Origin: an uncultured archaeon
GTDB lineage: Archaea > Aenigmatarchaeota > Aenigmatarchaeia > QMZP01
DNA length: 64,000 nucleotides
Assembly (NCBI GenBank): GCA_964498245.1
Contig: CAZCGK010000006.1
Span: forward strand, 944-64,943
Reading direction: 5' to 3'
A program made the position numbers and the translations under genes. A model generated the notes under the pieces. It made no database searches. It was not told the origin of the DNA and saw only the letters and a program-made list of their open reading frames with translations. The stretch's first letter is position 1, and every line of letters starts with the position of its first letter. Shown one piece after another: positions 1-61,023 of this stretch.

Positions 1-889
1 AACCCAACTCGGTGGTTTTTACTTCGTCCACATTCATTTCTCTTTTAATTTCAGAAAGGATTTTATCATTATTTTTTTTCAAGATTTTGTAATCTTTTTT
101 CTTAACTAAATATTCTTCAACTAAAAAACTAATATTTGCTAATTCAATAACATCTCTCAATGAAATATTTCTTTTAGATTTTAAGTATGTTACAATTTGG
201 TGTGGTTGTATTAAATCTTCTACACTTAAAATATCTAAATAAGTTTGTGCTTTAGTTACTAATTGTTTGTCACAAATCATCTTTCTCATATCCACTATTG
301 CAGCAAATTTAATGATATATTTATAATCTTTTGGTAAATCTTTAAGAATTCGTCTTTGTAACCATCTCTTTAGGTCAAATCCTCTTTTAATAAAATTTGC
401 TTTTACAGGAGGTAAAATATATATTCCTTGACCAAAAGTTTTGAATCCTAATCCAAGTAATCTATTTTGAATTTGTTTTTTGGGTTCATTATATTTTTGG
501 ATAAGTATGGTAAATAAAGGAGAATCTAGTTTTTCTATTAAATCTTCCTTTGATATATTTTCTTTCTGAAGTGTTTCATTAATTTTATCTAATAATTTTT
601 TAAGCTGTTTCTTTTCGATAGATTCTTTCTCTTTTTCATCTTTTACTTCTTTATACCTTTCTATTAACTCTTTGTTCTGTTCTTTATAAATCTGGAAAAG
701 AGTTTCATACTCTTCTTTAATCTTTTTGTTAGATAATGTCTGCCATAATGATACAAAAATGCTAATGATCCCTATGGTAAAACTAACAATTCCAACAAAA
801 GGATAAAAATATAAATAAAAGAAGATACTACTAACTATCAAAAAAATTCCTATTAATATAAATAAATGTTTTTTGATGAATGACATCAT
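1..889 (-). CDS. Hypothetical membrane protein (partial, runs off left edge): two N-terminal TM helices, Lys/Glu coiled coil, soluble domain
   Basis: Manual translation from ATG at 889 (MMSFIKKHLFILIGIFLIVSSIFFYLYFYPFVGIVSFTIGIISIFVSLWQTLSNKKIKEEYE...) stays open to position 2. Missing from the ORF track because it has no stop in the window. Starts 8 bp after the MTase stop. Confidence 0.8.
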   Translation of the reverse strand, partial: MMSFIKKHLFILIGIFLIVSSIFFYLYFYPFVGIVSFTIGIISIFVSLWQTLSNKKIKEEYETLFQIYKEQNKELIERYKEVKDEKEKESIEKKQLKKLLDKINETLQKENISKEDLIEKLDSPLFTILIQKYNEPKKQIQNRLLGLGFKTFGQGIYILPPVKANFIKRGFDLKRWLQRRILKDLPKDYKYIIKFAAIVDMRKMICDKQLVTKAQTYLDILSVEDLIQPHQIVTYLKSKRNISLRDVIELANISFLVEEYLVKKKDYKILKKNNDKILSEIKREMNVDEVKTTELG

Positions 890-897
890 TATACATT

Positions 898-1827
898 TTA
901 ATTTGATCCCACCATCTCAGTTATTTTTTTCTGCTTTAATTCATCTATTGTTTCCTTTATTCTCTTCTCAGCTAATCTGACATATTCTTCTTCAATTTCA
1001 TAACCTACAAACTTACGATTTGATAAAATCGCAGCCACAGCAGTTGTTCCGCTTCCCATAAATGGGTCAAGAACAACATCATTTTCAAAAGTGTATAGTT
1101 TTATGCATCTAAGAGGTAATTCCACAGGGAATGGTGCCGGATGGCCTACTTTTTTAGCAGATTCGGCGCCAAAAGTCCAGATACTTTTGGTTAATTCTAA
1201 AAATTCATCTTTTGTCATTGTTGCTCTCTCATTGTTATGATTGGCTCTTGTAAAGGTGTCTTTTGAAAAAACAAGGATATACTCATGAATATCTCTTAAT
1301 ACGGGATTTTTTGCGGATAACCAGCTTCCCCATGCAGTGGAAGGACTAGCAGTAGATCCTTTGTTCCAAATTATCTCCCCTCTCATTAAAAATCCGACCT
1401 TCTGCATATCTTCAATAATAAAAGCATGTAATGGAATGTAAGGTTTTCTTCCTAAGTTTGCTACATTAATACAAACCCGCCCACCGGGAACAAGAACTCT
1501 ATAAACTTCTTTCCACACTCTACTTAGAAAATCTCTGTACTCTTGTAAAGAAAGATTTTCGTCATATTCCTTTCCAACATTATACGGTGGCGAGGTTACC
1601 ATTAAATGAACGCTGTTATCTGGTAGTTCTTCCATTTTCTCACTAGATTTGCAGAATATTTTGTTAATATTTTCTTTAGAGATCTTATTTTCAACAAATC
1701 TTATTCCTTTTTTTTCTCTCGGTAAACCTTCATATAAACGACTATTATAAAATCTTGAGGAATCATGATTTATTCTCCCAGGCGAACCAAAACTACTTGT
1801 CTTTGTTCCGTTTCTTTTACTTATCAT
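898..1827 (-). CDS. DNA methyltransferase, beta class (N4-cytosine/N6-adenine)
   Basis: Catalytic motif VTSPPY precedes the SAM-binding motif VLDPFMGSGTT; HPAPFP motif present. ATG at 1827 preferred over GTG at 1836. Confidence 0.93.
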   Translation of the reverse strand: MISKRNGTKTSSFGSPGRINHDSSRFYNSRLYEGLPREKKGIRFVENKISKENINKIFCKSSEKMEELPDNSVHLMVTSPPYNVGKEYDENLSLQEYRDFLSRVWKEVYRVLVPGGRVCINVANLGRKPYIPLHAFIIEDMQKVGFLMRGEIIWNKGSTASPSTAWGSWLSAKNPVLRDIHEYILVFSKDTFTRANHNNERATMTKDEFLELTKSIWTFGAESAKKVGHPAPFPVELPLRCIKLYTFENDVVLDPFMGSGTTAVAAILSNRKFVGYEIEEEYVRLAEKRIKETIDELKQKKITEMVGSN

Positions 1828-2713
1828 TCTCACCAAACCTCATTAAATTAAGGAATTTTTCAGCTTTTTTCTCGTAAGTATCTTCCTTATTTGCTACTTC
1901 GATAAGTTTTCCAAGTTCTTTTTTAGTTTTCATTCCTGCAAAAAACATCCGCTCTTCTTTCAATAAATCTAAAAGGTGTTGCTTAAACTCAGAATAGGAA
2001 TCAAATCTCATAAAGCCCTCTTGTTCTGTTGACTTGATATTTTCTCCATTATTATCTAAAGGTTTTGGATTTAATGACCAGAACCCCTGAATAATACCAT
2101 AATTTTTTAAATTGTCAACTTTTGTATAATAACTTCTTGTGATTGGTGTATTCCCAAGAATTATAATAGGAATTTTTGCAGATTTTAAAGAAGCGATTCT
2201 TACACTTATGCTTTTACCTATTGCCTTTAACATAGTGTCTGATCTCAACAATCCAGGATTACCTTGGTGTGTTCTATAATCACCCAAACATTTTAGGGAA
2301 AATTCAGAATTTTTTAATAATTCCCAATTCCATACAATAGACATCTTAACTTCAAAAATAGCAATTATATCTTCTGGTTCCTGAAAAATGGAATTAGTTC
2401 TACATATCGCAACATCAGCAGGGGAACCTTTAGTTAACTCTAACTCTTCACAAACAACATTTCTTACGGCATGAGCATTTAACTCTTTTGCAATAGGATT
2501 AAGAATCTCTTGTGACCATTTTTCTGTGTAAGCACCAATAAAAGCATTTCTGCTTTGTAGAGTGGTTTTTATACCTTTGTAATTTTTTGGCCAATAAGCG
2601 TAATACTTTCCATCTTTTGTAACATAAAAAAGTTGTTCTGGTGTTGCTATTTTTAATGATTTAGTAAAAAAATCGATCTCTCTTTCCTTAGTCCATAAAT
2701 GTTTATCTGACAT
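1817..2713 (-). CDS. Putative type II restriction endonuclease (PD-(D/E)XK fold)
   Basis: Candidate catalytic motif PADVAIC...IFEVKMS. Overlaps the MTase start by 11 bp. Likely start MSDKHLW at 2713. Confidence 0.75.
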   Translation of the reverse strand: MSDKHLWTKEREIDFFTKSLKIATPEQLFYVTKDGKYYAYWPKNYKGIKTTLQSRNAFIGAYTEKWSQEILNPIAKELNAHAVRNVVCEELELTKGSPADVAICRTNSIFQEPEDIIAIFEVKMSIVWNWELLKNSEFSLKCLGDYRTHQGNPGLLRSDTMLKAIGKSISVRIASLKSAKIPIIILGNTPITRSYYTKVDNLKNYGIIQGFWSLNPKPLDNNGENIKSTEQEGFMRFDSYSEFKQHLLDLLKEERMFFAGMKTKKELGKLIEVANKEDTYEKKAEKFLNLMRFGENDK

Positions 2714-2855
2714 TCTTCCCACCATTCCTTTTAATTTCATTAATCATAAAATTCTCAATCTGCTTTGATAAAATCCAGCCATTCTTTTCGCAAATTTTTT
2801 TATATTCTTCGTAAGTTTTCTCATCAACGCTTAATGAAATAATTTTCTTCCCCAT
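2703..2855 (-). CDS. Small ribbon-helix-helix (CopG/Arc-like) regulator, 50 aa
   Basis: Manual translation MGKKIISLSVDEKTYEEYKKICEKNGWILSKQIENFMINEIKRNGGKNVR*: alternating beta-strand (KIISLSV), helix, G-x-x-x-S turn, helix. Overlaps the endonuclease start by 11 bp. Below the ORF-track size cutoff. Confidence 0.8.
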   Translation of the reverse strand: MGKKIISLSVDEKTYEEYKKICEKNGWILSKQIENFMINEIKRNGGKNVR

Positions 2856-2870
2856 TTTTAACCCCATAAT

Positions 2871-2888
2871 TTATATAATCTTATATAA
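2871..2888 (-). promoter_or_regulatory. Tandem palindromic TTATATAA boxes (TATA box / candidate RHH operator)
   Basis: TTATATAA at 2871-2878 and 2881-2888, 10 bp apart, 16-33 bp upstream of the RHH ATG. Confidence 0.45.
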
Positions 2889-3028
2889 AGATAAATAAGA
2901 ATTCTTTATAAAAATTTCGCTGCCCCGCCTTTTTTAATTGAAAAACAAAATATATATTTCAGTATATAATTTTCTGGCGCCCTCGCAAAAACTCTCCTCA
3001 CTCCTTCGGAGTTCGTCGCCCTATCGGG

Positions 3029-3127
3029 TCACTTAACAGCGGTTATGAGGCAAAACTTCGCTTCGCTCGTTTTGACCCAAATTTGTCCTTTCGGACAAAC
3101 TTCTCATAACCGCAATATGTCAAGTGA
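3029..3127. repeat. attC-like imperfect inverted repeat / cruciform
   Basis: TCACTTAAC (3029-3037) pairs with GTCAAGTGA (3119-3127, one mismatch). GCGGTTATGAG (3039-3049) pairs with CTCATAACCGC (3103-3113). Two internal hairpins at 3051-3074 and 3082-3099. Confidence 0.6.
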
Positions 3128-3390
3128 AATTTTCAGAACCAAGCCCCTCACAGAGTTCGGGGAAAAATAAATCTTCCATTAATCATTCCGATTTATTTTT
3201 GTTGTGAAAACTCGAAACCTTTAATGTTCTCATTACTTCGGACTTAAAGCTTTCGCCACTCCAAGTATTCGTGGTCAACTAACATCAATTATACCAACAA
3301 TAAGTTTACAGAACCCAAACGATAGATTTATAAATAAAAGTAAACAAATTAAATTCACTGATTCTGATAAAATACGGGGTTTGAATTTTT

Positions 3391-4026
3391 ATGGAAAACA
3401 AAATACAAGAAATAAAAACTGGAACAACAACTGTTGGCATTGTCTGCAAAGATGCGGTAGTCCTTGCTGCTGATAAGAAATCCACTATGGGATTTTTGGT
3501 AGCCAGTAAGGATACAGAAAAAATACTGCAACTCGATGACCATATAGCAATGACAACAGCAGGTGTTTCTGGAGATACACAAGCACTCCACAGATATATA
3601 AGAGCAGAATTAAAGCTTTACAAGTTAAAAGAGGAAAGGAGAATACCTGTAGAAGCTGCGGCAAATCTCATAGCAAATATACTTTATGCCAGAAGGTTTT
3701 ATCCTTATATTGTCCAGCTTATTGTGGGTGGATATGACACACAGCCCAGACTTTACAGCTTTGATATGGCTGGAGCTATTCAAGAGGAAAAGGAATATTT
3801 TTCCACAGGTTCCGGCTCACCAACTGCTTTCGGAGTTCTCGAAGATAAATACCAACCTGATATGTCGGTGGAAGAAGCAAAAAAGCTTGCTGTAAGGGCT
3901 GTAAGAGCCGCAACAAAAAGAGATGTTGCTTCCGGTGGAAGGGGAATTGATGTGGTTGTGATAGATAAAGAAGGTTTTCACAGAGTTCCGGAAAATGAAG
4001 TAAAGAAACTTGAAGAGTCCGAATAA
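3391..4026 (+). CDS. psmB: Proteasome beta subunit
   Basis: Short propeptide then catalytic TTTVG; GSGS and RD..SG motifs. Confidence 0.97.
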   Translation: MENKIQEIKTGTTTVGIVCKDAVVLAADKKSTMGFLVASKDTEKILQLDDHIAMTTAGVSGDTQALHRYIRAELKLYKLKEERRIPVEAAANLIANILYARRFYPYIVQLIVGGYDTQPRLYSFDMAGAIQEEKEYFSTGSGSPTAFGVLEDKYQPDMSVEEAKKLAVRAVRAATKRDVASGGRGIDVVVIDKEGFHRVPENEVKKLEESE

Positions 4027-4107
4027 AGAGAAGCAATAACAAAAAGAAAGTGATTTGAAACTTTTTCCATTCATGTTTTTAGCTTTTCTCATATAAAGGT
4101 GGTCTCT

Positions 4108-5979
4108 ATGTCTATTTTAAAAGAACTCAGAGAAAAACTCCCGAAGAACGCGGATATAACAGAAGTCATGTTCGAAGGTTCAGAGATAGTTATCTACACC
4201 AAAAACAAAGATTTTTTTCGAAAGGGTGAATCCATAATAAAGGAGATAGTTTCCGAATTAAAGAAAAGGGTGGAGATCAGACCTGATTCATCAATCTGTA
4301 TGGAAATGGAAAAAGCAAAGAAGAAGATAGAAGAAATAGTGCCTAAAGAGGCTGGTATAAAGGCTATATATTTCGAGCCCGAACTCGGGAAGGTTATAAT
4401 AGAGGTGCAGAAACCGGGTCTGGTAATAGGAAAGGGTGGTGAAACTTTTCGGAAAATAAGAGATGAAACGCTGTGGCTTCCGAAAATAGAAAGAGCACCT
4501 GTAATAAATTCTGAGATTGTGAGGGCTGTGAGAAATCTTTTCCATATAGAGCTTGAATACAGAAAGAAATTTCTTAATAAAGTTGGTCAAAAGATAAACG
4601 AACCCACGGTAAAATTCGAGAAGAATAAAGAATGGGTCAGGATAACGGCCCTCGGTGGCTTCAGACAGGTTGGTAGAAGCTGTATTCTTGTTCAAACAAA
4701 AAGATCAAATGTTCTGCTGGATTGTGGTGTAGACCCAGCAACTTCAGAACATCCTTATTTCGAAGTTCCGGAATTTGATCTTGAAAAACTGGATGCTGTG
4801 TGTCTGAGTCATGCACATCTTGATCACTGTGCATGCATTCCGTATCTCTATGATAGAGGTTATACCGGTCCTCTTTACTGTACCCCTCCCACAAGGGATT
4901 TAATGGTTCTGCTGTGTTTGGATTACATAGATGTGTGCCATAAAAATGGAATAGAGGTTTATCCAAAAAAAGCTGTAGAAAAGGCAGTAAAACATTCCAT
5001 TACTCTCGGCTACGGGGAGGTCTCTGATATTGCAAGTGATATCAGACTAACCTTTCAACCTGCGGGTCATTTGCTCGGTTCATCACTCATTCACCTTCAT
5101 ATAGGCGAGGGGCTTCATAACATTCTCTACACAGGTGATTTCAAATTCGGTCATTCAAGACTTTTTGACCCTGCAAGCACACAGTTTCAACGAGTGGAAA
5201 CCCTTATAATGGAGTCAACATATGGTGGTGTCTCGGATATCATGCCTCCGAGGAGAGAGGTAGAGGCAAATCTTCTCAAAATACTGGAAGAAACTGTAAA
5301 GAGTGGTGGTAAGGTTCTGATACCATCCTTTGCTGTTGGTAGGGCACAGGAAATAATGGTTATTCTCGCGCAGAGCGGTTTTGAATATCCTGTATATATA
5401 GAAGGTATGATCTGGGATGCTACAGCTATACATACAGCATATCCTGAATATCTTTCCAGATACCTTCAGAGAGAAATATTTCACAAAGGCAGAAATCCTT
5501 TCATATCCGATATCTTCAAGAGGGTGCAACCAAAAGAAAGAGAAAACATAATAGATTCCGGAGAGCCTGGAGTGGTGATTGCAACTTCTGGCATGCTCAT
5601 CGGAGGACCAGCTATTGAATATCTCAAAGGCTTTGCACATGTAAAGAAAAACAAATTGGTTTTTGTCGGATATCAGGCTGAAGGAACGCTGGGAAGGAGA
5701 ATACAAAAAGGATGGAGAAGCATACCCATTTCCGGGGAGGGAGGAAAAACAAAAACACTGGAATTAAAACTTGGAGTGGAGACTGTTCATGGACTTACCG
5801 GTCACGCATCAAGAAAGGAGTTAATGTTCTATTTGAAACGCCTATCGGCCAGACCAGAAAGGGTTATAATCAATCATGGTGAACCTAAAAAATGTTTGGA
5901 ATTGGCAAGAGATCTCCACAGGGTATATAAAATAGAAACTCTTGTACCCAAAAATATGGAAAGCGTAAGACTGAGATAA
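4108..5979 (+). CDS. fttA: KH-domain beta-CASP ribonuclease aCPSF1 (FttA)
   Basis: N-terminal KH region (KPGLVIGKGG), MBL motif SHAHLDH, AGHLLGS, YTGDF and GHA motifs; adjacent to psmB as is usual in archaea. Confidence 0.95.
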   Translation: MSILKELREKLPKNADITEVMFEGSEIVIYTKNKDFFRKGESIIKEIVSELKKRVEIRPDSSICMEMEKAKKKIEEIVPKEAGIKAIYFEPELGKVIIEVQKPGLVIGKGGETFRKIRDETLWLPKIERAPVINSEIVRAVRNLFHIELEYRKKFLNKVGQKINEPTVKFEKNKEWVRITALGGFRQVGRSCILVQTKRSNVLLDCGVDPATSEHPYFEVPEFDLEKLDAVCLSHAHLDHCACIPYLYDRGYTGPLYCTPPTRDLMVLLCLDYIDVCHKNGIEVYPKKAVEKAVKHSITLGYGEVSDIASDIRLTFQPAGHLLGSSLIHLHIGEGLHNILYTGDFKFGHSRLFDPASTQFQRVETLIMESTYGGVSDIMPPRREVEANLLKILEETVKSGGKVLIPSFAVGRAQEIMVILAQSGFEYPVYIEGMIWDATAIHTAYPEYLSRYLQREIFHKGRNPFISDIFKRVQPKERENIIDSGEPGVVIATSGMLIGGPAIEYLKGFAHVKKNKLVFVGYQAEGTLGRRIQKGWRSIPISGEGGKTKTLELKLGVETVHGLTGHASRKELMFYLKRLSARPERVIINHGEPKKCLELARDLHRVYKIETLVPKNMESVRLR

Positions 5980-5983
5980 AAAA

Positions 5984-6331
5984 TTATCTGTGAACAACTG
6001 CATAATGAGGTGTAAGTATAAGCCAATTTTGTTCTACACCTGCAATATCACCACTGTTTGCTGCAACACCCTTTTTTATTTTATCCACAGCTCTCTTTAA
6101 TTCTCCCATATCTTTATCTTTAAGATTTTTTATATTGAGAAAAACTATTTCACCCTCTCTTATATGCTTTAGAACTCTATCTGTATCTGCGAAATCATTG
6201 AGTCTTTCTATCCTTATTCCTATTTTTCCAGGTCTTTTTTCCTGAGTATCCATCACATTGACTTCCATGTACTCTTCTTCCTCATATTCAGGTATTTCTT
6301 CAGGCCTGCGGGAAAAGAATTTCAGTACCAT
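5984..6331 (-). CDS. sepF: Cell division protein SepF (DUF552)
   Basis: VLKHIREGEIVFLNI...LKRAVDKIK...GDIAGV..NWLILTP signature. True start MVLKFF at 6331; the ORF-track extension is unlikely. Confidence 0.88.
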   Translation of the reverse strand: MVLKFFSRRPEEIPEYEEEEYMEVNVMDTQEKRPGKIGIRIERLNDFADTDRVLKHIREGEIVFLNIKNLKDKDMGELKRAVDKIKKGVAANSGDIAGVEQNWLILTPHYAVVHR

Positions 6332-6384
6332 ATCAACCCTCCAATTTATTCGAATTATTGAGTATAATTGTGAATGTAAGATTT

Positions 6385-6648
6385 TTAAACTTTTAATTTT
6401 GATTTGTTTTTCATACTTTCCAGAATGGAAACCATGTTCCATATCTGTGTTCTTGCATATGATGAGATGTTCGGATCGTTGGAAGCATCATCAAGTATCG
6501 AGATTAAGCAAGATATCTTTTCTTCTTCCGTTTTCAAATCCTTTATTAAGCTTAAAGATTCTTCAATGGAGGTTTTCACGTTTTTTGGAACACCTTTATT
6601 TTCAAGGAGTTCTTGAATGATATCATCAAGTGTCACCTCTTTCTTCAT
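6385..6648 (-). CDS. UPF0147 family protein
   Basis: VPKNVK...LDDASNDPNISSYARTQIWNMVSILE signature. Confidence 0.9.
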   Translation of the reverse strand: MKKEVTLDDIIQELLENKGVPKNVKTSIEESLSLIKDLKTEEEKISCLISILDDASNDPNISSYARTQIWNMVSILESMKNKSKLKV

Positions 6649-6663
6649 TTTCTCACCCCCTAT

Positions 6664-7011
6664 TCATCCTCCGTATTCCTGATCCTTTCCTGCTTTCAGC
6701 AATTTCTGCCTCAGTTCTTCAATTTTATCATTAACCATTTTTTCCGTTTTTTCAACAGATTTTAATCTTACTTCTAATGTTTCTTTTTTTTCATTCAACT
6801 CTTTTTTAAGGGTTTCCACAGGGGTTTTTACCAAAACTGGTCCAGCGATCTTATAGGCATTTTTTTCTTCTGTTTTTTCCAACTCATTTAAAGCTTTTTC
6901 TATTTCTAAGGATTGAAGCTTTAGATTTTCTTTTTGTGCGAGTATTGTTTGGAGTTGTTGCTGGTAAATCTGAATTTGATTCAAGAGTTGTTGATTGTGT
7001 TGCGAAACCAT
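6664..7011 (-). CDS. pfdB: Prefoldin beta subunit
   Basis: Coiled coil, hairpin (YKIAGPVLVK), coiled coil; position in the exosome superoperon. Confidence 0.95.
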   Translation of the reverse strand: MVSQHNQQLLNQIQIYQQQLQTILAQKENLKLQSLEIEKALNELEKTEEKNAYKIAGPVLVKTPVETLKKELNEKKETLEVRLKSVEKTEKMVNDKIEELRQKLLKAGKDQEYGG

Positions 7012-7026
7012 TTTAAACCTCCTTTA

Positions 7027-7164
7027 TCATATAGCTTTTACTCTTTTTGTTATTTTCGGTCTTGTCTTTTTCAATACTCTGTAACCACAATATGGACAGA
7101 TAATTTTTTTAGCGGTTTTCAAATCTATTTCAACTTCCTTTCCACAGTTAAAACACTTATACAT
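7027..7164 (-). CDS. rpoP: RNA polymerase subunit P (Rpo12)
   Basis: Manual translation MYKCFNCGKEVEIDLKTAKKIICPYCGYRVLKKTRPKITKRVKAI*; Zn ribbon; canonical position after rpl37ae. Missed by the ORF track. Confidence 0.95.
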   Translation of the reverse strand: MYKCFNCGKEVEIDLKTAKKIICPYCGYRVLKKTRPKITKRVKAI

Positions 7165-7199
7165 TAAACAACCTCCTGTTTCAATAATTACGTTTTTGA

Positions 7200-7412
7200 C
7201 TAAGTGGGTTTATATGCTTTACCTGCAAACTTTGCTCCACACTTTTTGCATATCCATATACCGCTTATTTCCCTTCTCAATGCAATTTTTGTACATTCTG
7301 GGCATTTGTACTTTTTTTGTGTACCTATTTTTATCAGCCTTTCTTTTATCTTGCTTCCGTATCTTGCCCCATATTTACCTGTAAATCCAACTTTTTTTGT
7401 TCTCTTTCCCAT
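7200..7412 (-). CDS. rpl37ae: 50S ribosomal protein L37Ae (eL43)
   Basis: TKKVG.TGKYGARYG; CPEC...GIWICKKCG.KFAG.AY. Confidence 0.97.
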   Translation of the reverse strand: MGKRTKKVGFTGKYGARYGSKIKERLIKIGTQKKYKCPECTKIALRREISGIWICKKCGAKFAGKAYKPT

Positions 7413-7457
7413 TTTGTTCCTCCTTCATAATTTATGAGACTAAGAGAAATTTATAAT

Positions 7458-8225
7458 TTATGATAGCAACTTTCTTAAAATTTTTCCCTTTTCAAGCGCA
7501 ATTTTAAATGCTGTTTCTATTTCATTCATATCCAAGGGTTCTGAGCCCATTTTCTGAAGAGCGCATATGTTTCCGTTATCTTTGGTTGCTATTATCAATT
7601 TTGTTCCCATAACTCTTTCTTCTTCCAGCGTTGGGTCTACAACGAGTTTGTCTGCTATTTTAGCTACACTTACAACAACGGGTTTAAACCTTACCGGAAG
7701 GCTTTTGATTTTCTTTTCGTAATTGATCTTTTCTCCGTCATATTCCGGAATCTTTGTGCATAGCAATGCCTGGATTGCGGCAAGGGCTGAAGCATCTATA
7801 AGATTACCTGAGTGATTGAGTGTGTGAATGTCCAAGTTTATTATCCATACCTTTTCTCCTTCTGTTATACATAATTTTTCCGTATCTATTGCACCAGATT
7901 CCCGTATTCCCCTGTCCACAACTCGTGCAAGTTCTATCGCATCTTCTTTCGGTGGTCCTGTCTCGAATTCCGGAGAAGCAAGAGGTGAGAATTCTGCATT
8001 TACTATCAACACGCCCTCATTTGGTTTGTCAGGAAAGGGAGCACCAACGCTCATTTTTACACCAGCGAGAACCTGTGTATCACCTATACAAACCTTTGCC
8101 GAGCCATCTGCTTTGTAGACAACATCCTTTTCAATGATTATCTTTCTATATTCATCCAGCTTTCTATCATCCATTCGTTCTCCCTTTGCAATAAGATTTA
8201 TCATGTATTCATCTTTTATTCGCAT
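7458..8225 (-). CDS. rrp42: Exosome complex component Rrp42
   Basis: RNase PH fold: KADGSAKV, IELARVVDRGIRES, GNLIDA. Confidence 0.96.
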   Translation of the reverse strand: MRIKDEYMINLIAKGERMDDRKLDEYRKIIIEKDVVYKADGSAKVCIGDTQVLAGVKMSVGAPFPDKPNEGVLIVNAEFSPLASPEFETGPPKEDAIELARVVDRGIRESGAIDTEKLCITEGEKVWIINLDIHTLNHSGNLIDASALAAIQALLCTKIPEYDGEKINYEKKIKSLPVRFKPVVVSVAKIADKLVVDPTLEEERVMGTKLIIATKDNGNICALQKMGSEPLDMNEIETAFKIALEKGKILRKLLS

Positions 8226-8238
8226 TTTAACACCCTCC

Positions 8239-8925
8239 TTATTTTATTCTCCACTTTTCTCTTAGTGCTTCTTTCTGCTTTTCATAAATTATCTTGCAAC
8301 CCTTAATGGCGAGGTTTATGATGTTTTTTATATCTTCAGGAGACATATCTCCATCCATTTGAAGAAGTGTGATCTTGTCCAACCTGGGCATGTATGCTAC
8401 AGGTAAATCGCATTGGGTTATATCCTCTTCCTTACCTTCAAGATCAAGAACGTACTGATTTTCTATTTTTCCTCCTGCAACAGCCGCAACCAGATCTCTC
8501 ATCGGTATACCTGCATCGGCGAGGGCAACACTTGCTGCATTTATACCAGCTGTTCTTGTTCCTGCATCAGCTTCGATTATGTCAATAAACACTTCTATGA
8601 TAGATTTTGGAAATTCTTCGAGAAAAATTGCCGGTTCTAAAGCATGTCTGGTTACTTTTGAAATTTCCTGGCTTCTTCTGGAAGGACCTGGTTTTACCCT
8701 CTCTTCTGTGGAGAATGGAATCATATTGTAGTACGTTTTGAGAACTGCTCTATCAGAAATTTGCATGTGTCGTGGAAACATCGTTCTGGGCCCGTAAACC
8801 GCGGCTATAGCTGTGGTTTTTCCCAAAGAAACAAGAGCAGAGCCGTCTGCTTCTTTTATAACACCAACTTTTATCACCAAAGGTCTTAATTCATCTGGCT
8901 TTCTATTATTTTTCCTATCCACCAT
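8239..8925 (-). CDS. rrp41: Exosome complex exonuclease Rrp41
   Basis: ADGSA, AVYGPR, PSRRSQEIS, EADAGTR, QMDG motifs. Confidence 0.96.
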   Translation of the reverse strand: MVDRKNNRKPDELRPLVIKVGVIKEADGSALVSLGKTTAIAAVYGPRTMFPRHMQISDRAVLKTYYNMIPFSTEERVKPGPSRRSQEISKVTRHALEPAIFLEEFPKSIIEVFIDIIEADAGTRTAGINAASVALADAGIPMRDLVAAVAGGKIENQYVLDLEGKEEDITQCDLPVAYMPRLDKITLLQMDGDMSPEDIKNIINLAIKGCKIIYEKQKEALREKWRIK

Positions 8926-9622
8926 CTTTATCACTCTCCGATTTTTTCTTTATTTCTTCGTCCAGCATTTTTGAGATTTTTTCTGTCAATCCTTCTGCAT
9001 GGGGTTCTTTTTCTATCGTATCTATTACTCTTTTTACGAGTTTTACATTTTCACCATCAACCCACAGGATGCCGTTTTGTCCTACACTTATTTTACAACC
9101 CGTTTTTTCTTTTATTATATTTATCATTGACCCACCTCTTCCTATTAATCTTGGAACTTTGGCTGAGCTCATTTTTAGTATCATTCCTCTTCTGAATTTT
9201 TTGGCACGAGGATCGTGCATTGTAAGGTATATAGAACTTCCGCTGATATGGGATATTTTTGTGTAAAGGGTATCACCTATTCCATAAACACTGGAAAGAT
9301 CGGTTTTTGTGATGTCTATAAATCTTGTTATACCGAAAAGTGGCAGATAAGCTTCATGAACGGAATTTATATCCAACACCCAGCCATTGGTCTGTATATC
9401 TATTACCTCACCTATTACCATATCTCCAACTCTCGGAACATAGACACCTGATAAGGGTATTACTGATATCACTCTTCCCTGAACAGAGACTATACCTACC
9501 TTTTTTGAGATAATGGCTTTATCTTCTCTAAAACAATTCTTTCCAGGTATATAATCCATAGATTCTATTATTTTTTCTCCCGGTAATACCACTTCTCTTT
9601 CCCTTCTGAGCAATTTTGCCAT
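8915..9622 (-). CDS. rrp4: Exosome RNA-binding protein Rrp4
   Basis: VVLPGE; S1 domain (YVPRVGDMVIG); KH domain (VPRLIGRGGSMI, VGQNG). Confidence 0.95.
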   Translation of the reverse strand: MAKLLRREREVVLPGEKIIESMDYIPGKNCFREDKAIISKKVGIVSVQGRVISVIPLSGVYVPRVGDMVIGEVIDIQTNGWVLDINSVHEAYLPLFGITRFIDITKTDLSSVYGIGDTLYTKISHISGSSIYLTMHDPRAKKFRRGMILKMSSAKVPRLIGRGGSMINIIKEKTGCKISVGQNGILWVDGENVKLVKRVIDTIEKEPHAEGLTEKISKMLDEEIKKKSESDKDGG

Positions 9623-9681
9623 TTGATCACCTTTTTTTCTTTAAAGGAAAGATTTTTAAAACCTTTACCAGAAAGTGGAGT

Positions 9682-13463: not shown

Positions 13464-16400
13464 TCACACTACCTCGTAATCTACAAATGTTATATCCACA
13501 GGCTCGTCTGAGAAGAACTGCTGACTTTTGTAGAAGAATGGTATGAGCAGCGTGTATTTGCCTGGTTGTGGTTGAGTGAGGAATGTTACATGCGCCTGTC
13601 CTGTGGAATTCATATATATTGCAGACCCGTACCAATTATCCTTTCCGCTTTCCGGACCCCCACCGAATAATTCAAATAACGGAATAGCTCCTCCGGTCTT
13701 TGTTAGATGTCTTACGAAGGGTGCCATCATAAGATTTTGCGAGGCATTTATGATTCCATTAATAAACTCACCTGGTGAGAATGGTCCTGTATCAGTTAGG
13801 GTTACCTTTGTTTGACTATCAGAACCATGTATTACTATCATGTACCCTTCCATATCGCTTATATTACTTGGAGTTTCAATTACCTGAAGGAATATGAGTG
13901 CAGGTCCTGAAGTTGTATTGGTTGGAATGGTTAGATTGAGTGAAAGGTTTCCATCGGGAGAGAGGAAACCGTAACCCTCATCCACCACGGGTACTTCCTC
14001 ATCGCCTGTGGGTTTGAACTGAAGTGTTTGCAGTTTTGCTCTTACCTCTCCCATTACTGGAGAACCGCTCTGGTTTCTAACGGTCAAGAAAAGTGTAATA
14101 TTTTCTCCTGGTTTGTATTCCAGCTTGCTGATATTTACAGTTATGTTGAAGTTTCTTACCAGGAATGGTTTTTCTGCCCAAGTGCTTCCCATTTCTGGAA
14201 CATTGACATCTACACTTGCATGATATTCACCTGCTGGAAGGTTCGAAAGAATGAATGTTACGGTTCCGTTTTGGGATGTGAGATTATACATCGGTGGAAT
14301 TTCGGGACATCCAGTAGTAGTCTCATTATCTTCGGGGGGCGGTTCAATCATCATACACCAAACATTAAGAGTAACCGATGCATTTGCCACTGGGACTCCT
14401 ATACTGTCCGTGACATTCACGGTTACATTTACGGTCTCATTAACAAAGAACTTTTCTTTTCCATTACCAAGTATTATTTTAACATTCATCGGTTTTATCA
14501 TGAACCATCTCTCTGCTTTCTGAACTGTGCCGTTATATTCAACTTCAAGTTGGAGGAGGTAGTTTCCTGGAGCTGAAGGTGTAACAAAGTTTCCTATCAC
14601 TTCTCCATATGAATCTGTTGTGTAGTTCTCGGATGATGGATAGATTTCAACCGGTTGCCAGCTCCATTCATCGATCAGTTGCCTCTTATATACTGTTGCT
14701 CCGACAACAGGATCACCGCTTGCATTCATAATTTTTATCCAGAATTGCACATTCTTGTTGGTCTGGAGGATTTCGTTCATGAGGAAGGACACCTGGAAAC
14801 TAACTACTCTGAAATGGACTCTATGTTCTGTGCTTATACCTGAACAGGTAACATTGAGTTTGGCTTCATATTCTCCGGGGTTTAGAGTCTCCGGAATCGT
14901 GAAGACAAGTCTCACTCCTGGAGGTCCCGGGCCTTCGTATGCTCCAAGATACCACTGCTGTATGCTTGATCTGTCTGCTTCCAAGTTCCAAGACTGGGTA
15001 TCTCTTATTTCCACAAGCTCAAACTTTTCACAGGAACTCTCTTCATCAATATCCTGCCAATCAGCTGACCAGACCTCTATAATTACTGTGGCGTTTTCTC
15101 CTGCCCATGCATCGTGTGGTTCCATCCATGCATTTATATAATGTTCACCTTCGCTTTTTACTTCAAACCATCTCCATTCTTCAAAGCTCTCTACACCCTT
15201 ATCACTCTGAATATCTACCTTGAATATAGCATCATATGAGCCTCTCTCTGTAGGAACAGTGAAAGTAAGATATGTTGTATTTGTGGTGGTTGTATTGCAT
15301 ACACCATAGAACGTTTCTACTCCTGTGAAGATGTTCCTTACCCTGTCAAGACAGAAATTTACATTGGTTATATTGCTCGTATCACCTGAGATTGATAACT
15401 TTGCTGTGAGCGATCCGCCTTCTATTGCAGTGTCAGGCATGCATGTTGACACATCAGGTGGACAGACAAAACTGATGCTCACACCGAACTGAGTAACCAT
15501 GAACCATACATGTCTTTCTGTTGAACTTACCGTTCCTGAAATATTGGCTGTAACATTTATTATGGCAACATATTCTCCTGTATCATTTGGAGCAATGAAT
15601 CTTAATTCAGCCCTGCCCGTGGTATCGGTTGTCTGATTATCCTTAATTACTTCGACAGATACTGGTATCCACCCATCAATCTTCCTGAATTCTATTATTG
15701 AAACATTCGCTCCTGCGACTTTATTTCCTTCGGGATCGTTAACATATACAGCAATTATCGCATTTTCACCCTCTGATAATCTGTCTGTGTTGCTGTTTTC
15801 TCCTATAACCCAAGCGTCAGCAAAAAATGTTGCAACCTCAAATCCTTCCCAGTAAGTTGCAGCGTCCTTACCTGCTATGATTTCCGCTTCGTAACGAGCT
15901 GGTTCACCCGGAACAGGTATGTTTATATATTTGAATCCTGAGGAATCTGTTTGGCCCAGATAATAATAACTTATATTTTGTCCTGGCTCCCACAGACCGT
16001 GTTTCCATATTCTCACACTTATATCAACACCCTCTTGCGGAGACCCTGATTTGAAAACATAAAGTCTTCTTGTAAAGTTCTCTCCAGGTAAATAAATCCA
16101 TTTATCATCCATTCTGTCTATTCTAAGCTCATAGGTGTTTATATCAAATCCTGTCCATGTGATTTCATTTCCATCTCCTTCTCTGAGTTTGACATCGACC
16201 TTTCCTGTGAGATTTGCTGGTAAAGTGAAACTAAGCGTGGCTATACCTGAAGGGTCTGTATCTATATACTGAGTTGTGAAACTCACATCATCCATTATGC
16301 TCCTGTGTTCTTTCTGTGAGTAGATTTCATCTATTGTTATGTTAATTCCTGACCATGCGGTACCGTTTGGGTATCTTAAAACAGCTTTTATGGTCACATT

Positions 16401-19400
16401 ATCTCCTGGAGAGAACGGTCCGCCTTCAGGCCATGCCCAGAATTCTTTGGTTCGGACATTGAAATGATAATATTCTGTGGTAATCTTATCATCAGCAAGG
16501 GTTTTGAATTCAAGTTGTGCTTCGTATTCCCCTGGACCAAGATTTGGTGTAAAACTATATTGTTCATAAGACCCGGCATTGGCTGTTATATTGGTTTCAT
16601 TGAGATTATTTACACCTGTTGATGTCCAGTCCCAGGTATTCTTTATATCCACAACTGTAACAGTAACATTTCCCTGATATTCACTTCCATTGGGATAGAG
16701 AATATCAAACACGATCGTCACATCCTCTCCCGGAGAGATATCATGTACTGTATTGGGATCCCAGTGGATTATTTCTATTTTGTAGGAACCTGCTTCAAAC
16801 CAGTAAAACTTCTCTGCACTTCCAACTTCCGCTACCAGTGTATATCTGCCTGGAGTATCTATAGTGATGTTCTGAAGGGTAAACCCTTGGGAGGTTATGT
16901 TGATCGTATGTTCTTGAAGAGTTATCCATCTGTAATCGTCTTTCAGTATTACTCTTCCTTCAACAGTTTCATTAGGTGCCGGTGTTACAGTTATATTAAA
17001 TGTTATCGGCTCTCCTGTGAAGAATCTTCTTTCCTCCCCTACAGGCGGAACTGTATCTATGGTGATTTCATAATCGCTTATCTTGAACCACACTTCTCTC
17101 ATTCTGCTTTCACCACTCGGAATATGGGTTACATTAAACCTTGCTATGTATTCTCCTGCTGAGAGTCCGGATGTAGTAAAGGTTATTCTCTTTCTGTTCA
17201 TCGGTGAGGTTTGGTTTTCTACAGTTATCTGTGAGGTTATTGCCGAAGATATGTTAAGCCAAGTTTTTCTGTCTCTGAGATCTATAAAGGAAAGAACGTA
17301 ATTTGATGGGTTCTCCAGAGCTCCTGAACTCAGTTCTACAACAATAAAGAGTTCTACTTCATCCTGCGGTGTAAATGAACCCTTTTCGGTGAAAGCATGA
17401 ACCTCAAAAGACTGGATGGAAAAACCTATGTAAACTCTTCTTCCATTTTCGCATTCTGTTCCTGGATCGGTTCCTTGCTTGTAAACACAGAGCTCTGCTT
17501 CGTATTCTCCGGGCTGAAGGTTATCTGTTATTATATTGTACGTTCCTGTTCCTGATACATTTAAGGGATTTTTAGAGTATCCGGAAATAGAAGTACCGGA
17601 CCACATATCTCTTAGTGCTTGAAGGTGAACTGTTATGTTGATAGGAGAACCATCCGGATTTCTGGCATCGAGATATACCGTTATATTCTGTCCAGTATCA
17701 TAGGCCCATTTTTCAGTCCAGAAATTCAGATCGAATGTCTTCACCCTGAACCATCTTTTAGAAACAATTATGTTTCCCGTTACATTATCTGTGACACTTA
17801 CATAAAGAACATACTCTCCTTCTGATGAAGGGGAAATGAATGTAAGGTAATTACTCTCCTGTATATTGCTGGTGATGGTCTGAAGTTGAGTTTCCGTTCC
17901 TGTATCCATACTCCTGTACTTCATACTGAGCTGGGAGACACTTATTTCTCCGCCTGTTGGATTGGATATATTCACTTCAACCTGAATTGTGGAGCCTGCA
18001 GGAAACTCTTCCATTTCATTTCCGTTTTCATCAAAAAGTTTGACGTTTACAGCAATGCTTCTAACCTCGAATTCAGGAAGTAACCACGGATCTTTTTGTA
18101 ACTCTCCGCTAACATTAACCATCGGTCTGTACACACCGGATTCTTTAGGTGCTTTGAAAATGACCTTCGTTCTACCCCCTGCATCTGTTGGAGATGCCTG
18201 ACCGACCATTTTAGCCTCCTTAAAGGTCCAGGGCCATGACTCGGTATTGACAAGCTGATATACGCTAACATTTTTTCCCTCCAGAGCGGAACCACCAGGG
18301 TCTTTAACAGTTATCCACATTTCGACGTTTTCTTCAGGTGCATAAACTCTCTTCGATGGATTTACAAGCTCACCGGAAATCTGATAGTTCTGAACAGAAA
18401 ACCATACATAAGCATCAGAGGTTGCACCGAGATCGTAAGCGTTAACCCTTACAACTGCTTCATACTGTCCAATGGGAAGGTTTGATACACTAAAACTGAA
18501 ATCTACAGTTATTTCATTTCCAGTAGTGTTCTTTGAATAGCCATAGGGATAAAGGCTTTTATCAATCTCGGTCCAAGTCATAGTATCTCTTAGCTCTACA
18601 AGAGTCAGGGTTGCGTTTACGGGAGAACCATCAACTTTTTTGACCACTATCTTCATACTTGCATTTCCGGATTGAGACACATACCAAGGATCAGCCCATC
18701 CATAAACTTCCAGAACCGAAACTTCAAACCATACTTCATGTAATTCTTCTTTTTGCTCACTATCATTCGATCTTACCTTTATTATAGCCATGTAGTAGCC
18801 CTGATCCAAACTCTTTCCTGCCTTTGCTTTTATCCATACATTCGCAACTCCTCCTGAAGTTTGACTTGAATTGGATTTGTCGTAGATATCAATTGGAACA
18901 GGAACAGGAGGTCCTCTCTGAACATATAAAAGGTTTTCTATCGAAACCTCAGAACCGTCCGGAACTAATGTACCGTTGAAATATTCGGCATGTACCTCAA
19001 AGGTTATATTATCTGTTGGTTCAAATTTCCACCGGAATTCGCCTGTTTCGCTTTTCGTGTATGCCCATACATCAAGATTGCTTACTTTGAACCATGCTTC
19101 TCCCTTGTCTTTGTTTCCATTCATGTCGGTAAGCTCTATCTCAGCTATATAGGGACCGGAAGTTAGCTGAAGGTTGGATAAACTTAGTCTTAACACAGGC
19201 CTTCCCCATTCATCATCAGGAATTTCTTTATATTTGCTTACATTGAGATTTGTATATTCTCTGTGAGTGATTTCGTTTCTTATTTTTGTAATAGAAAGTG
19301 TATATTCGGATGAATCCACTCTGTTTGTATCTCCGTGACCACCGAGATTGTATACATTGATGTGGAAGTAAACCTCATCATTCGGACCGAATCTCCACTT

Positions 19401-21116: not shown

Positions 21117-21208
21117 TGATTTAATAATTGCACCTCGGTTGTATTTAAATTTTATTTTTTTGTATAAACATTATCTGAATAAAGGGTTAATTTAATTTGA
21201 TTTTGGTT

Positions 21209-24200
21209 TTACTGTATTGCTCTAATTTTAAACATATATATTGCTGCTGCACCTGCAACAAGTATTGCAATTATGAGATACCATATCCATGTATAATCTG
21301 GGGATTTACATTTTTCCTCTGAACAGCCATATTGGCATATTTCCAAAGTCTCCCAGGATGTTCCTTCTTGATTACATTGCTGGAGTTCCTGACCCAGGCA
21401 TCGCTTTTCTCCAGGTGTACAAACTTGCTTGAGTGGTTGTTCTTCAGGTTGTTTACAGTCTTCAGGGCAGTTTTCAGGAGTTTCTCCCTCCTCGCAAACA
21501 CCATTTATATTGCAAACTTCCTCCGAAACTTGAACTTCTTCTCCTGCTATTGCGAAGTAGGAAAAGCCTGTGCTTTCTGCCTCATAGTAAACTGTTTTTG
21601 AATCTTCAGATATCAGGGTTGTTGGAAGTTTTTGCCAGGAGGTTGTATAGCGGTATAAAGAGATTGTGGATTTGTTTATGTTATTCTCTTCTATCCAAGA
21701 TTTGTTCACATGGAACTTTATAGTTGCTTTTTCAAGATTGTTTCGCAGGTTTCTGTGGGTTATTTCTATGTATTGGTATACTTTACCGGAAACTTCATGA
21801 GTTACATCTGCTGGTTTCCCTTTAAGCTTGGTCACCTTTATGTAAACAGAGGTAGCAGGATTTATGACCATTATACCTATCTCATGGATTCCAATTTCTT
21901 TCTTATTGAGTTTGAAGATTGAAACATTTCCGGGGTTTACCCTGCTCCAGGAGTAGGCCACGTAAGGAAGAATTTCTTGTGGTGTGTAGCCTGCACCTCC
22001 ACCCGTATCATAGGTGATGGAAGATTCGGGTGGTGTGTAGCTGACCGTTAGGTAATAAACAGAGGAGATTCCTGTGTTACCTCCTGCATCTCTACATCTT
22101 ACACTCCAGTTATAGTTTCCGTTAGAGAGGGATTTTGTAAAGGTTTGGGATGTGTCTTTTGTTATTGAAGTATCGGTCTGATCTGTGATGCCATTTATTA
22201 GAAGTGTGCATGAAGTTATACTGCTTGCATCTGTTACATTGTAAGTGAATGTTACCGTACTTGAGGAGGTCCAAGTGGATGCATTTGAAGGAGAGATAAG
22301 GGTAACGCTTGGCTGAATGGTATCCACTGTGAATGTGATACTTGCATGGTTAATATTTCCGGCGGTATCATTCATCCAGAGGATAAGGGTTGATTGCTGA
22401 TTGTTAAGAGCGGTAAATGTTTGGTTTGAGCATGAAGGTAGGCTTGTGTTCGTTCCATTATATTGATACCAGCATGTATCAAGATTGGCTTCGGTGTAGG
22501 TGAAGTTTAGCCAGAGAGTTGTGGTATTGTATGTGGTGTTTTGTGGCGAGAGTATTGTTATTGTTGGTGGGGTGGTATCAACTGTGAAGTATTCCTGTGC
22601 AGAGCCTGTATTTCCTGCGGAATCGTTGGCATAGACTATAACATTGTTCAATCCTTCTGATGCTGTTATGGTTATGTTTGAACATGATGCTAATATTATG
22701 TTACTTCCTCCGTTTAATGAATACCAGCATGAATCAAGGTTTGCGTCCTGAACTGTATAGTTCAGATCTATAGATGTTGTTGCATATGTGGTGTTTTGTG
22801 GTGAATAAATTGTTACAGTTGGTTGTGTTGTATCTACGGTTACATACCAAGTTCCGTTCCAACCCCAGTTTCCAACGCTGTCGTTTATATAGACCGAGTA
22901 GGAGATTATTCCATCTCCTTGGTTTGTAGCATTGAAGTAGCAGGCATAATTTCCGAGCATGGTCATGGTGTAGTTTGCCTGAGTTCCGTTGTTGAGCTCA
23001 AGTATGCAAGCTTGCGGCGTATCATCTGTGAATGTTATGTTTATTTCGAAATAATTTGTATTGATATGAGAATTGTTTGAAGGTGTGGGTGAGACAATGA
23101 TTATGTTCGAAGGCGGACCTGTGCTTACGTAGGTTGTAAATATTACCCCATCATCTGCAGAGGAAAGGTTCCAGTCTGTTTCGGTATCCGTTCCGTTCCA
23201 GTGGTTTGCAATGATATAGGAAGTATATACACCCTCGGTGGAATTTGACACATTAAGTTCAACCACTTCCCATTCTCCTATGGAGAGGTTAAGGAAAGTA
23301 TCATTCAATATTCCTGTTCCTACCACACTGAGATTATATTCCTCTCCAAGGCTGTTGTTTCCGAAATTAGTTATGTTTATGAGATATGTTGCATTTTGTC
23401 CTGCCTGAACAAATCTTTCCATAACGGTGAGGTTTTCGAATGTGAGGTTATGAAGTGTGCTTCCAACCACGTAGGTGGAGAATGTGCTTACGGTAAAGCT
23501 AAGATTCTCTCCATCAAATACTACATCCATACATCTGGTCGGTGGACATGGTTGAAGGTCTGATGGCAGGAAGCTTCCGTTAAAGCTTCCGTAACCTATT
23601 GACGGATCTTTTATACCAAGCAGTCCTGTGATATTATATATTGTTATTCTTGCAGATGTTGTGAGATTTGGTTTATCTCCCTGTCCATTCCATTCAGAAT
23701 CATTTATACCTATCCTTCCTGCTTTCATGAGGTTTTTCATTGCGAATTGCATTATAGCGGACGCTTTTTCTTTCGTGCTCATATCTACAGGCTGCGTGAA
23801 GTTAATCTTCACAACACCGGGAATCTCTATCACCAGAGGTACAGCAGAGAAATCACCTGTAGCTGCAATCTGATTGAAGTTTGTGGTGCTTCCACCGAAT
23901 TTAGGAGTACACACAACATAATCGGTTCCGTTATCCCATGCAAATCCTATGTTTTCAACAGGACATTCATTTGTGCAACCTGTTATATTCACGAGAGTTC
24001 CATTCGGTAAGGGCATCTGCGGAGGAAGTTCAAGTACATTTGGAGGGCAACTTGGAACAACACTCATGTTGAAAAGCAAGACTGGAACAAGAAATTCATA
24101 ATAGAAAACTGAATCATTTGTTGCTTTTACCGTGATGTTTACATCGCTGATATACTTTATGTTTACATTGAGATTGGAGTAATCTATAAATGCTCCAGCC

Positions 24201-24916: not shown

Positions 24917-25108
24917 ATACAAATAAATAATTAGCTTGAGACCTATATAAAATTTTAAATCGTATCCGCAAAATAAAGCAGCTTGCAAAAATAAACCTTT
25001 ATAAACCTCTGCAGTATTCTAAATATATAATCTATAATATATTATTCTCTCCTGTTCCAAATCTCGGAATCGATTAAAGCCTTCAGTTTTTGCGGAGGTG
25101 ATAACCCC

Positions 25109-53360: not shown

Positions 53361-53642
53361 TTATACAAATACAGTGGTGTTGTCAAATTCTATCAATGGT
53401 TTATTCTTAATCCTTTTGAATCTTCTTTCACACTTCTTACATAACGTTGCTATCTCTATTTCAACATCCGTTTCAGAAGAAAGTTTTTTGAAATATTTTT
53501 TGAGAAATATAAAATTCTGGAAATCTATATCACCGATATATACACTTTTATGCAACCTTACAAAACCGTTATTTCTTAAAAAATTTCTTATTTTTTCCCT
53601 TTTTCTATCATCACTTATATCATAGCTTGTTATTGCAAGCAT
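53361..53642 (-). CDS. cas2: CRISPR-associated endonuclease Cas2
   Basis: SYDISDDRKR...GFVRLHKSVYIG; GGTGA SD before ATG at 53642. Confidence 0.93.
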   Translation of the reverse strand: MLAITSYDISDDRKREKIRNFLRNNGFVRLHKSVYIGDIDFQNFIFLKKYFKKLSSETDVEIEIATLCKKCERRFKRIKNKPLIEFDNTTVFV

Positions 53643-56875: not shown

Positions 56876-56898
56876 GAATAGAATTAAAAAAGCATGAT

Positions 56899-60354: not shown

Positions 60355-60365
60355 GAGGTGAAATT

Positions 60366-61022: not shown

Positions 61023-61023
61023 A

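Follow-up and report, generated by a model that had tools for sequence, protein, structure and literature searches.

A folded, attC-like site that probably bounds mobile gene cassettes in archaea of hydrothermal vents

Background

Between a set of restriction-modification (R-M) genes and psmB, the gene of the proteasome beta subunit, a contig of an uncultured archaeon (GenBank assembly GCA_964498245.1, contig CAZCGK010000006.1) carries a palindrome of about one hundred nucleotides, which raises the question of what such a structure does there. The first-pass annotation of the 64,000 nucleotides that we analysed, called here the window, read the palindrome as an integron attC-like site and the R-M genes as a cassette that had arrived beside psmB. 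Archaeal integrons were reported only in 2022, with canonical bacterial-type attC sites: they are found, mostly as CALINs, in 75 archaeal MAGs (Ghaly et al. 2022, PMC9668308). Among the Hadarchaeota, 3-4% of genomes carry integrons, and one Hadarchaeales MAG has 107 attCs (PMC9668308). The nine archaeal attCs tested in that work, one of them from Hadarchaeota, are canonical, with the layout NNNTAAC-AANTC-L''...L'-spacer-GTTANNN and two bulged bases, and the published Hadarchaeota site GTATAACAACTCGCTGGAGCGGAC... is of this type (PMC9668308).

Our answer is that the palindrome is quite probably a real integron-like, structure-specific recombination site, bounding mobile gene cassettes in hydrothermal-vent archaea. 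It fails several of the defining features of a canonical attC, and is a variant of the attC-like kind, not a member.

Results

Anatomy of the site

The core of the element occupies positions 3026..3128 and is read on the minus strand. Reading of the sequence and a repeat search both give a perfect 11-bp inverted repeat, GCGGTTATGAG (3039-3049) and CTCATAACCGC (3103-3113), enclosed by an outer 8-bp repeat, CACTTAAC (3030-3037) and GTCAAGTG (3119-3126), whose one mismatch reads on the minus strand as a G.U(T) wobble. Two hairpins lie inside (3050-3076 and 3079-3102), and the spacers between the repeats are asymmetric: a single nucleotide, A3038, on one side and five, AATAT (3114-3118), on the other. 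The palindrome with its internal hairpins and unequal spacers is thus present much as it had been described, with coordinates right to within 1-3 nt; the claims of a single mismatch at one core end, and of a GTTAAGT end that points, on the minus strand, into the R-M genes, also hold.

On that strand the core folds into a structure of 103 nt in which a 4-nt bulge separates the stem P1 from the 11-bp stem P2, and P2 leads to a three-way junction. Its parts follow one another as the 5' strand of P1 with the box CACUUGAC (3126-3119), the bulge (3117-3114), the 5' arm of P2 (3113-3103), hairpin A (3102-3079), hairpin B (3076-3050), the 3' arm of P2 (3049-3039) and the box U-GUUAAGUG (3038-3030), in which GUUAAGUG, at 3030..3037, is an R'-type box. 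The conserved parts reach further than was first described, from 2976 to about 3142. The site is an island of 41-43% GC between flanks of 26-27% GC, and sits in a gap of 523 nt (26-31% GC) between an ORF of 54 amino acids (2703-2867, minus strand) and psmB (3391-4026, plus strand).

By our own estimate, chance alone gives about one perfect 11-bp inverted repeat with both arms within 100 nt in 64 kb. The fold as single-stranded DNA has z = -7.9 for the minus strand and -6.1 for the plus strand, and none of 200 shuffled sequences folded as well. A covariance model built on homologues from other contigs, model R1, scores the site at 96.6 bits (E = 4e-28), and a second model of the family, R2, run with filters off, at 88.9 bits. 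The whole element is far beyond chance, on account of the z-scores of its fold, the GC island and the 96.6 bits.

Relatives and covariation

The first-pass annotation had proposed a search for further copies. Pattern scans and the covariance model brought to light some 60 related copies, spread over about 45 contigs from archaeal genomes and metagenomes, all of them outside the window and many in arrays between genes. A first scan, for both arms of P2 in one genome per species, yielded five archaeal loci in GTDB genomes, including one in a Hadesarchaea MAG (L048), and one bacterial palindrome. The latter, at 4247-4310 of a contig labelled Chthonomonadaceae (L047), matches both 11-nt arms, but its interior is one long perfect hairpin from which the motifs of the family are absent; it is probably unrelated. 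A looser pattern led to 31 JGI metagenome contigs. Within the 64-kb window there is no second copy, either by blastn or by the family model with filters off, and two pattern scans of viral contigs returned chance matches only.

The copies share one layout, given here for the strand that corresponds to the minus strand of the window. Its 5' half reads N5-UAAC(A/G), the bulge UAU(U), the 11-bp P2 and GAAGU followed by hairpin A; its 3' half reads AUUUGG followed by hairpin B, the return strand of P2, U and GUUA-N5. In a first alignment of 33 copies, 93% of the cells predicted to pair do so, against 84% in shuffled alignments. Model R1 was built on this alignment, and then picked up many more divergent copies, in which the sequence of P2 is completely different while its pairing is kept. 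With 53 copies aligned, the paired cells amount to 93.7% against 76% in shuffles, and cells with a double change number 261 against 67. In P2 alone, 97% of the cells are paired and 9 of the 11 pairs show compensatory changes, although a few sites have mismatched P2 arms.

Metagenome contigs that overlap the region cover the core (about 3024-3133) several times more deeply than its flanks, and join many core variants to unrelated flanks; a 50-kb Logan contig that carries psmB begins inside the element. A shorter subfamily was seen on four contigs (L051, L052, L076, L079), with a core of 63 nt, boxes CAACG/UGUUG and tandem G.A pairs in hairpin B. Its copies lie only 160-250 nt apart on L052, and adjoin DNA methyltransferase genes on L076 and L079.

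Arrays and cassettes

At 15 loci the covariance model finds between 2 and 5 copies in the same orientation: five on L052, L056 and L044, four on L061 and L067, three on L072 and L069, and several pairs. The interval from one site to the next has a median of 728 nt (range 145-9666) and mostly holds one or few ORFs. The cargo includes methyltransferases, a toxin-antitoxin pair, a DUF4268 gene and a helicase. The largest ORF of a cassette is on the strand of the site in 9 cases and on the opposite strand in 20; two cassettes have none.

The ends of these intervals are complementary. When the 5 nt that follow GUUA in one site are compared with the 5 nt that precede UAAC in the next site, a mean of 3.68 out of 5 form Watson-Crick pairs, the match being perfect in 14 of 28 cassettes and 4/5 in another 6. 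The same two extensions taken within a single site give 1.74/5, and random pairs of sites 1.88/5. Since the complementarity is found across cassettes and not within sites, each stretch from one site to the next holds both halves of a single helix; sites in arrays are hybrids of two cassettes, as in integrons.

The pairing extends beyond these five bases. The last 15 nt or so of a cassette, on the 5' side of a conserved AAUUK motif, pair with a stretch 35-65 nt from the start of that cassette; two small hairpins and a conserved GAGUU motif come before this stretch. The duplex energy of this outer helix, P0, is -26.3 kcal/mol within own cassettes and -17.9 kcal/mol between foreign ones. As tail and head of the same cassette pair, a cassette closed into a circle would rebuild an element of about 200 nt.

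The types of core are not tied to particular tails or heads. Together with the mismatched arms of P2 in a few sites, this indicates that exchange inside the core, or on both sides of it, also happens, and the simple rule by which a core goes with the upstream cassette has exceptions.

An interval of 9.7 kb between two sites of L077 (1673-11340) holds genes of defence type, in which an ORF of 588 aa accompanies an N6/N4 methyltransferase (611 aa), a ResIII/SNF2 helicase (700 aa) and an SMC-like ATPase (635 aa). A DUF4268 gene lies directly upstream of the L077 array. An AT-rich palindrome, AAATTATATAC-N4-GTATATA, is conserved at window positions 2960-2975, with equivalents in L044, L060, L074 and L056; it follows the strand of the outer helix where a number of different cassettes begin, and could be a cassette-borne TATA box or a protein-binding site.

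The restriction-modification unit

The R-M unit begins, on the minus strand, with a head at 2976..3036 that is identical on all R-M contigs. It opens with the extension AAGUGA and continues with hairpin C (3028-3019), hairpin D (3012-3000), the motif GAGGAGAGUU (2999-2990) and the 3' strand of P0 (2991-2976), whose partner, on contig L056, is the cassette's own tail GGCGCCCGAGCAAAAA. Four ORFs follow on the same strand. The first gene, at 2703..2867 in the ORF list, encodes the 54-aa protein, which was initially read as RHH-like; it has no match in Pfam, and its sole NCBIfam match is at chance level (E 0.04). An ORF of 307 aa (1817..2740), with no match in Pfam, NCBIfam or PDB, is a putative restriction endonuclease by its position, as it always precedes and overlaps the methyltransferase gene. 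The latter, at 898..1836, is predicted to encode an N6/N4 DNA methyltransferase, an assignment made secure by PF01555 (E = 3e-53) and by an NCBIfam match to adenine-specific DNA methyltransferase. The last ORF (1..889) runs off the left end of the window and reads as a transmembrane/coiled-coil protein with weak family matches only. The covariance model, applied to positions 1-3025, finds no site between it and the methyltransferase gene.

The 54-aa protein is found identical on 11 contigs, together with the unit of putative endonuclease and methyltransferase, and on every contig that reaches far enough a site of the family lies about 240 nt upstream of its ORF. The DNA that these contigs have in common begins at CCUCAUAACCGC-UGUUAAGUG, and what precedes it is of three kinds: a cassette with a DUF5655 gene on L056, L172, L173 and L179, one with a HepT-MNT toxin-antitoxin pair on L177 and L178, and a short ORF-less cassette in the window. 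On L056 the unit stands between two sites whose outer halves match each other, and comprises the 54-aa ORF, an ORF of 308 aa, the N6/N4 methyltransferase, an ORF of 465 aa and a D12 methyltransferase. The 5' flank of the second site, GGCGCCCGAGCAAAAA-UUU-CACUUAAC, is complementary to the sequence just behind the first, UGUUAAGUG...UUUUUGCGAGGGCGCC. The R-M unit of the window thus has the appearance of one mobile cassette, in agreement with the original proposal. That the array continues to the left was also foreseen, and the scan of the window with the model leaves this as the only direction in which it can extend. Downstream of the methyltransferase gene, the window differs from L056 with no site in between, so that the contents of cassettes must also change by other routes.

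The proteasome side

Read on the minus strand, the window presents a junction, an ORF-less cassette of about 245 nt that ends in the site, and the AT-rich R-M cassette, which runs off the left end. The body of the ORF-less cassette (3129..3282) has a head, with GUUAGUUGA and two hairpins, that resembles the heads of other cassettes, and then a tail (3127..3142) made of an AAUUU motif and the 5' strand of P0. In this cassette, 3130-3142 pair with 3198-3210 at 85%. Including its 3' core, and with a crossover placed at G|UUA, the whole unit would correspond to 3037-3282. Positions 3118-3288 are absent from a strain variant, in which 3117 is joined to 3289, and from the Hadesarchaea MAG locus L048.

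The array starts at the junction, about 90 nt upstream of the start codon of psmB. This junction, ATTGTTGGTATAA-TTGATG-TTAGTTGACC (3273..3301, minus strand), has the boxes but lacks a hairpin. Positions 3289-3316 are 100% identical to 333-360 of L048, where a full core comes next. A comparable case is offered by L172, where the region at about 7620-7660 is the same cassette junction as L056 8886-8987, with the interior of the hairpin gone (UAAC-AUAU-GCGCGGC-UGUUA). Sites can be lost, as L172 shows, when the palindrome is precisely deleted. For the junction at 3273-3301 there are two readings, a site deprived of its hairpin or a simple site of dif/attI-like type.

The first housekeeping gene to the right of the array is psmB (3391..4026, plus strand; PF00227), and the neighbourhood is archaeal: psmB, aCPSF1, SepF, prefoldin, RpoP, L37ae and the exosome operon with Rrp41/42/4 and SBDS. 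Further along the window, a type III CRISPR-Cas cluster (53623-62831) comprises Cas1 (53623-54600, minus strand), a Cas4/Csa1-like nuclease (54575-55483, minus strand), Csm6 (55634-56872), a CARF-wHTH protein (56899-57630), Cas10 (57630-59903) and another four small ORFs that probably encode RAMP or small subunits. At 13467-24988, two minus-strand ORFs of 2550 and 1259 aa with N-termini resembling signal peptides come after an ORF of 527 aa, and are probably surface or secreted proteins.

Discussion

RNA genes and dispersed repeats

A palindrome with branched hairpins need not be a recombination site, and two quite different readings deserve to be weighed. A housekeeping RNA gene, such as RNase P or SRP, can be set aside: Rfam gives no match at gathering thresholds over the 64 kb, and only chance-level ones at E <= 10 over 2850-3400; ARAGORN finds no tRNA or tmRNA; and the arrays and hybrid sites complete the case. 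A transcribed structured RNA is a broader possibility, either as a processing, stabilising or terminating signal at the borders of cassettes or as a free ncRNA gene, and in such a scheme the pairing of heads and tails would serve RNA folding. The RNA does fold strongly on both strands (z about -4), the element is a GC-rich island in an AT-rich genome, and in hairpin B the loops are GNRA-like and the G.A pairs sheared. On the minus strand one G.U pair is invariant, a position in P1 has G.U in 24 of 52 copies, and G.U is overall commoner than A.C, by 101 pairs to 16; however, 75 of the 101 fall at two fixed positions. On the other strand these two positions would be fixed A.C mismatches, which could play a role like that of extrahelical bases. 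The absence of any match in Rfam even at E <= 10 also counts against an RNA, as does the fact that the element is neither single-copy nor syntenic, and the arrays, hybrid sites and shuffled R-M units call for recombination of DNA. We thus find an RNA in place of a recombination site improbable, but a role as RNA could exist beside the role as DNA.

A selfish dispersed repeat of the MITE, REP or PATE type, spreading apart from any exchange of cassettes, would also be palindromic, would exist in many variants per metagenome, and would make assembly contigs break where it lies, all of which is seen. A family of this sort, unrelated to gene cassettes, was one of the outcomes that the first-pass annotation had set against its own proposal. 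The copies speak strongly for cassettes: one stands alone in 64 kb, those in arrays are all co-oriented and lie between genes, their stems covary rather than copy one sequence, their flanks pair across each cassette, and no transposase is associated with them. The probability of a dispersed repeat is accordingly very small.

Position of the crossover and proposed mechanism

We return to the integron-like recombination site. The crossover must lie between P2 and the variable extensions. The motif UGUU is invariant in 52 of 52 aligned copies, of which about 33 were chosen with a pattern that contains GCTGT and the remainder were not; UAAC, on the 5' side, is less constant. Singleton sites with no other site in the 5-7 kb before them (L045/L063 and L070/L078) lack UAAC. 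The invariance of UGUU and the lack of UAAC in sites that come first in an array favour the G|UUA side, while the linkage of cores to tails or heads is inconsistent and does not indicate a side. We infer a crossover at G|UUA, between G3037 and U3036, which is the canonical position of integrons; the bases after GUUA belong to the next cassette.

The following scheme can then be proposed. In a free circular cassette, one strand would fold into a structure of about 200 nt with several helices: the outer helix P0, a P1 of 9 bp (N5-UAAC / GUUA-N5), the 4-nt bulge and the 11-bp P2, then the three-way junction with the conserved GAAGU and AUUUGG and the two small hairpins. The folded single strand would be the substrate of a tyrosine recombinase of the Xer/IntI kind, not encoded in the vicinity, and cleavage and strand exchange would take place at G|UUA. 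Once the cassette is integrated, the core would be left at one of its ends, and the rest of P1 and P0 would open the next one.

The recombinase: integron integrase or XerA

As had been noticed at the outset, no integrase is visible in the window: a motif regex and phmmer with an approximate IntI1 query detect no tyrosine recombinase there. The wider search for an IntI-like gene that had been proposed yielded little. In 289 kb of window and loci together there is no intact integrase, and only two degraded genes of Xer/IntI-like type were found, neither in the canonical position, at 2183-3135 of L054 (minus strand) and about 590-1092 of L077 (minus strand), 0.5-1.6 kb from sites of the family. 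Each is out of frame and lacks a central catalytic segment that is nearly the same in the two (profile positions about 117-260 and 147-250). Their best match is TIGR02249, the integron integrase, with archaeal XerA about equal, the diagnostic middle part being absent. The remnant on L077 comes after a small ORF similar to the 54-aa protein of the window. The L054 gene has intact homologues (P0005, P0012), and these stand in unrelated contexts with no family sites nearby.

This leads to the conjecture that the housekeeping recombinase XerA integrates folded cassette circles at a dif-like chromosomal site, in the manner of an IMEX such as CTX phage. The single-stranded genome of this phage forms a forked hairpin, and XerCD inserts it at dif. 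The XerA reading differs from the preferred one only in the enzyme and the landing site. The dif site of Pyrococcus abyssi is ATTGGATATAA-TCGGCC-TTATATCTAAA (archaeal XerA/dif: PMC2958812). The logo of the left arm over 48 of our sites, AATTK-N4-TAA|C, has the layout of the arm ATTGGATATAA, and the junction at 3273-3301, written as ATTGTTGGTATAA-TTGATG-TTAGTTGA, resembles that dif with its dif-like arms and a 6-nt spacer. The XerD arm of E. coli, which we take to be ATTTAACATAA, has the same layout as the logo. The lack of an integrase in or beside any array, and the nearly equal scores of the two fragments as XerA_Arch and as integron integrase, are also what one would expect. Against this, the similarity to dif is short and judged by eye, the neighbourhoods of the arrays differ (psmB, TBP and others), and P2 varies freely in sequence like the L boxes of attC, unlike a second Xer arm; the window has no xerA gene. 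A Xer-type mechanism without a dedicated integrase is, on the pattern of IMEX elements, a serious alternative for the enzyme, but the full reading, with integration by XerA at a dif-like site, seems to us rather doubtful.

The comparison with Xer/dif and IMEX systems is nevertheless instructive. The vent sites appear to share with them an 11-nt arm, ATTK-N4-TAA, beside the point of cleavage. The substrate is probably a folded single strand in both, elements build up in tandem at one site, and an integrase of their own is lacking. They differ from IMEX in the many small cassettes with one hairpin site each, and in a second arm, P2, that is unconserved. It is possible, and we suggest it tentatively, that they form an undescribed class, with a multi-helix site of about 200 nt, an arm of Xer/dif type and no linked integron integrase, by which hydrothermal and subsurface archaea stack cassettes for defence and other functions, possibly by way of XerA. 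If this were true, the vent sites would be a living intermediate between Xer/IMEX integration and integrons.

Comparison with integron attC sites

The likeness to attC sites and CALINs is extensive: sites in the same orientation between short gene cassettes; ...TAAC / GTTA... boxes, with a crossover at G|TT that we infer here; an inner stem kept in structure and not in sequence; two halves of one site in each cassette; a cargo of R-M, toxin-antitoxin and unknown genes; most arrays without an integrase; and an occurrence in Hadarchaeota. The sites also differ from attC. The central spacer is a 4-5:1 bulge, where attC has a bubble of roughly 5:6. The inner stem is a perfect 11 bp without extrahelical bases, and the terminal structure is a conserved three-way junction with GAAGU, AUUUGG and an invariant G.U. 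A P1 of 9 bp, an extra outer helix of 12-17 bp and two hairpins bring the element to about 200 nt, beyond the attC plan, and the ORFs are mostly antisense to the site, which is non-canonical for integrons.

The check that had been recommended, a covariance model of attC, gave no match. Our model R3, built on 7 published attCs (aadA7 and six archaeal sites), is a small stand-in for the model of IntegronFinder; against the sites of the family it returned nothing at E <= 10 with default filters, and noise with filters off. The proposal of an attC-like site therefore stands as far as the function at cassette boundaries, the boxes, the arrays and the hybrid ends are concerned, but is not supported as a claim of membership among canonical integron attC sites. 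A partial parallel exists in the VCR sites of the sedentary chromosomal integrons of Vibrio cholerae, which, like the vent sites, are long, homogeneous within a lineage and branched at their ends, and form large arrays. Unlike the vent sites, VCRs have canonical R and L boxes and extrahelical bases, and an adjacent intIA is kept.

Conclusions

A second site architecture that obeys the logic of cassettes would mean that surveys based on attC models undercount the cassette arrays of archaea. The site described here would give a concrete substrate for asking whether IntI or XerA moves the cassettes, a question that bears on the origin of integrons from Xer-type systems. For the archaea themselves, it indicates that R-M and toxin-antitoxin modules are shuffled as cassettes among uncultured inhabitants of hydrothermal vents.
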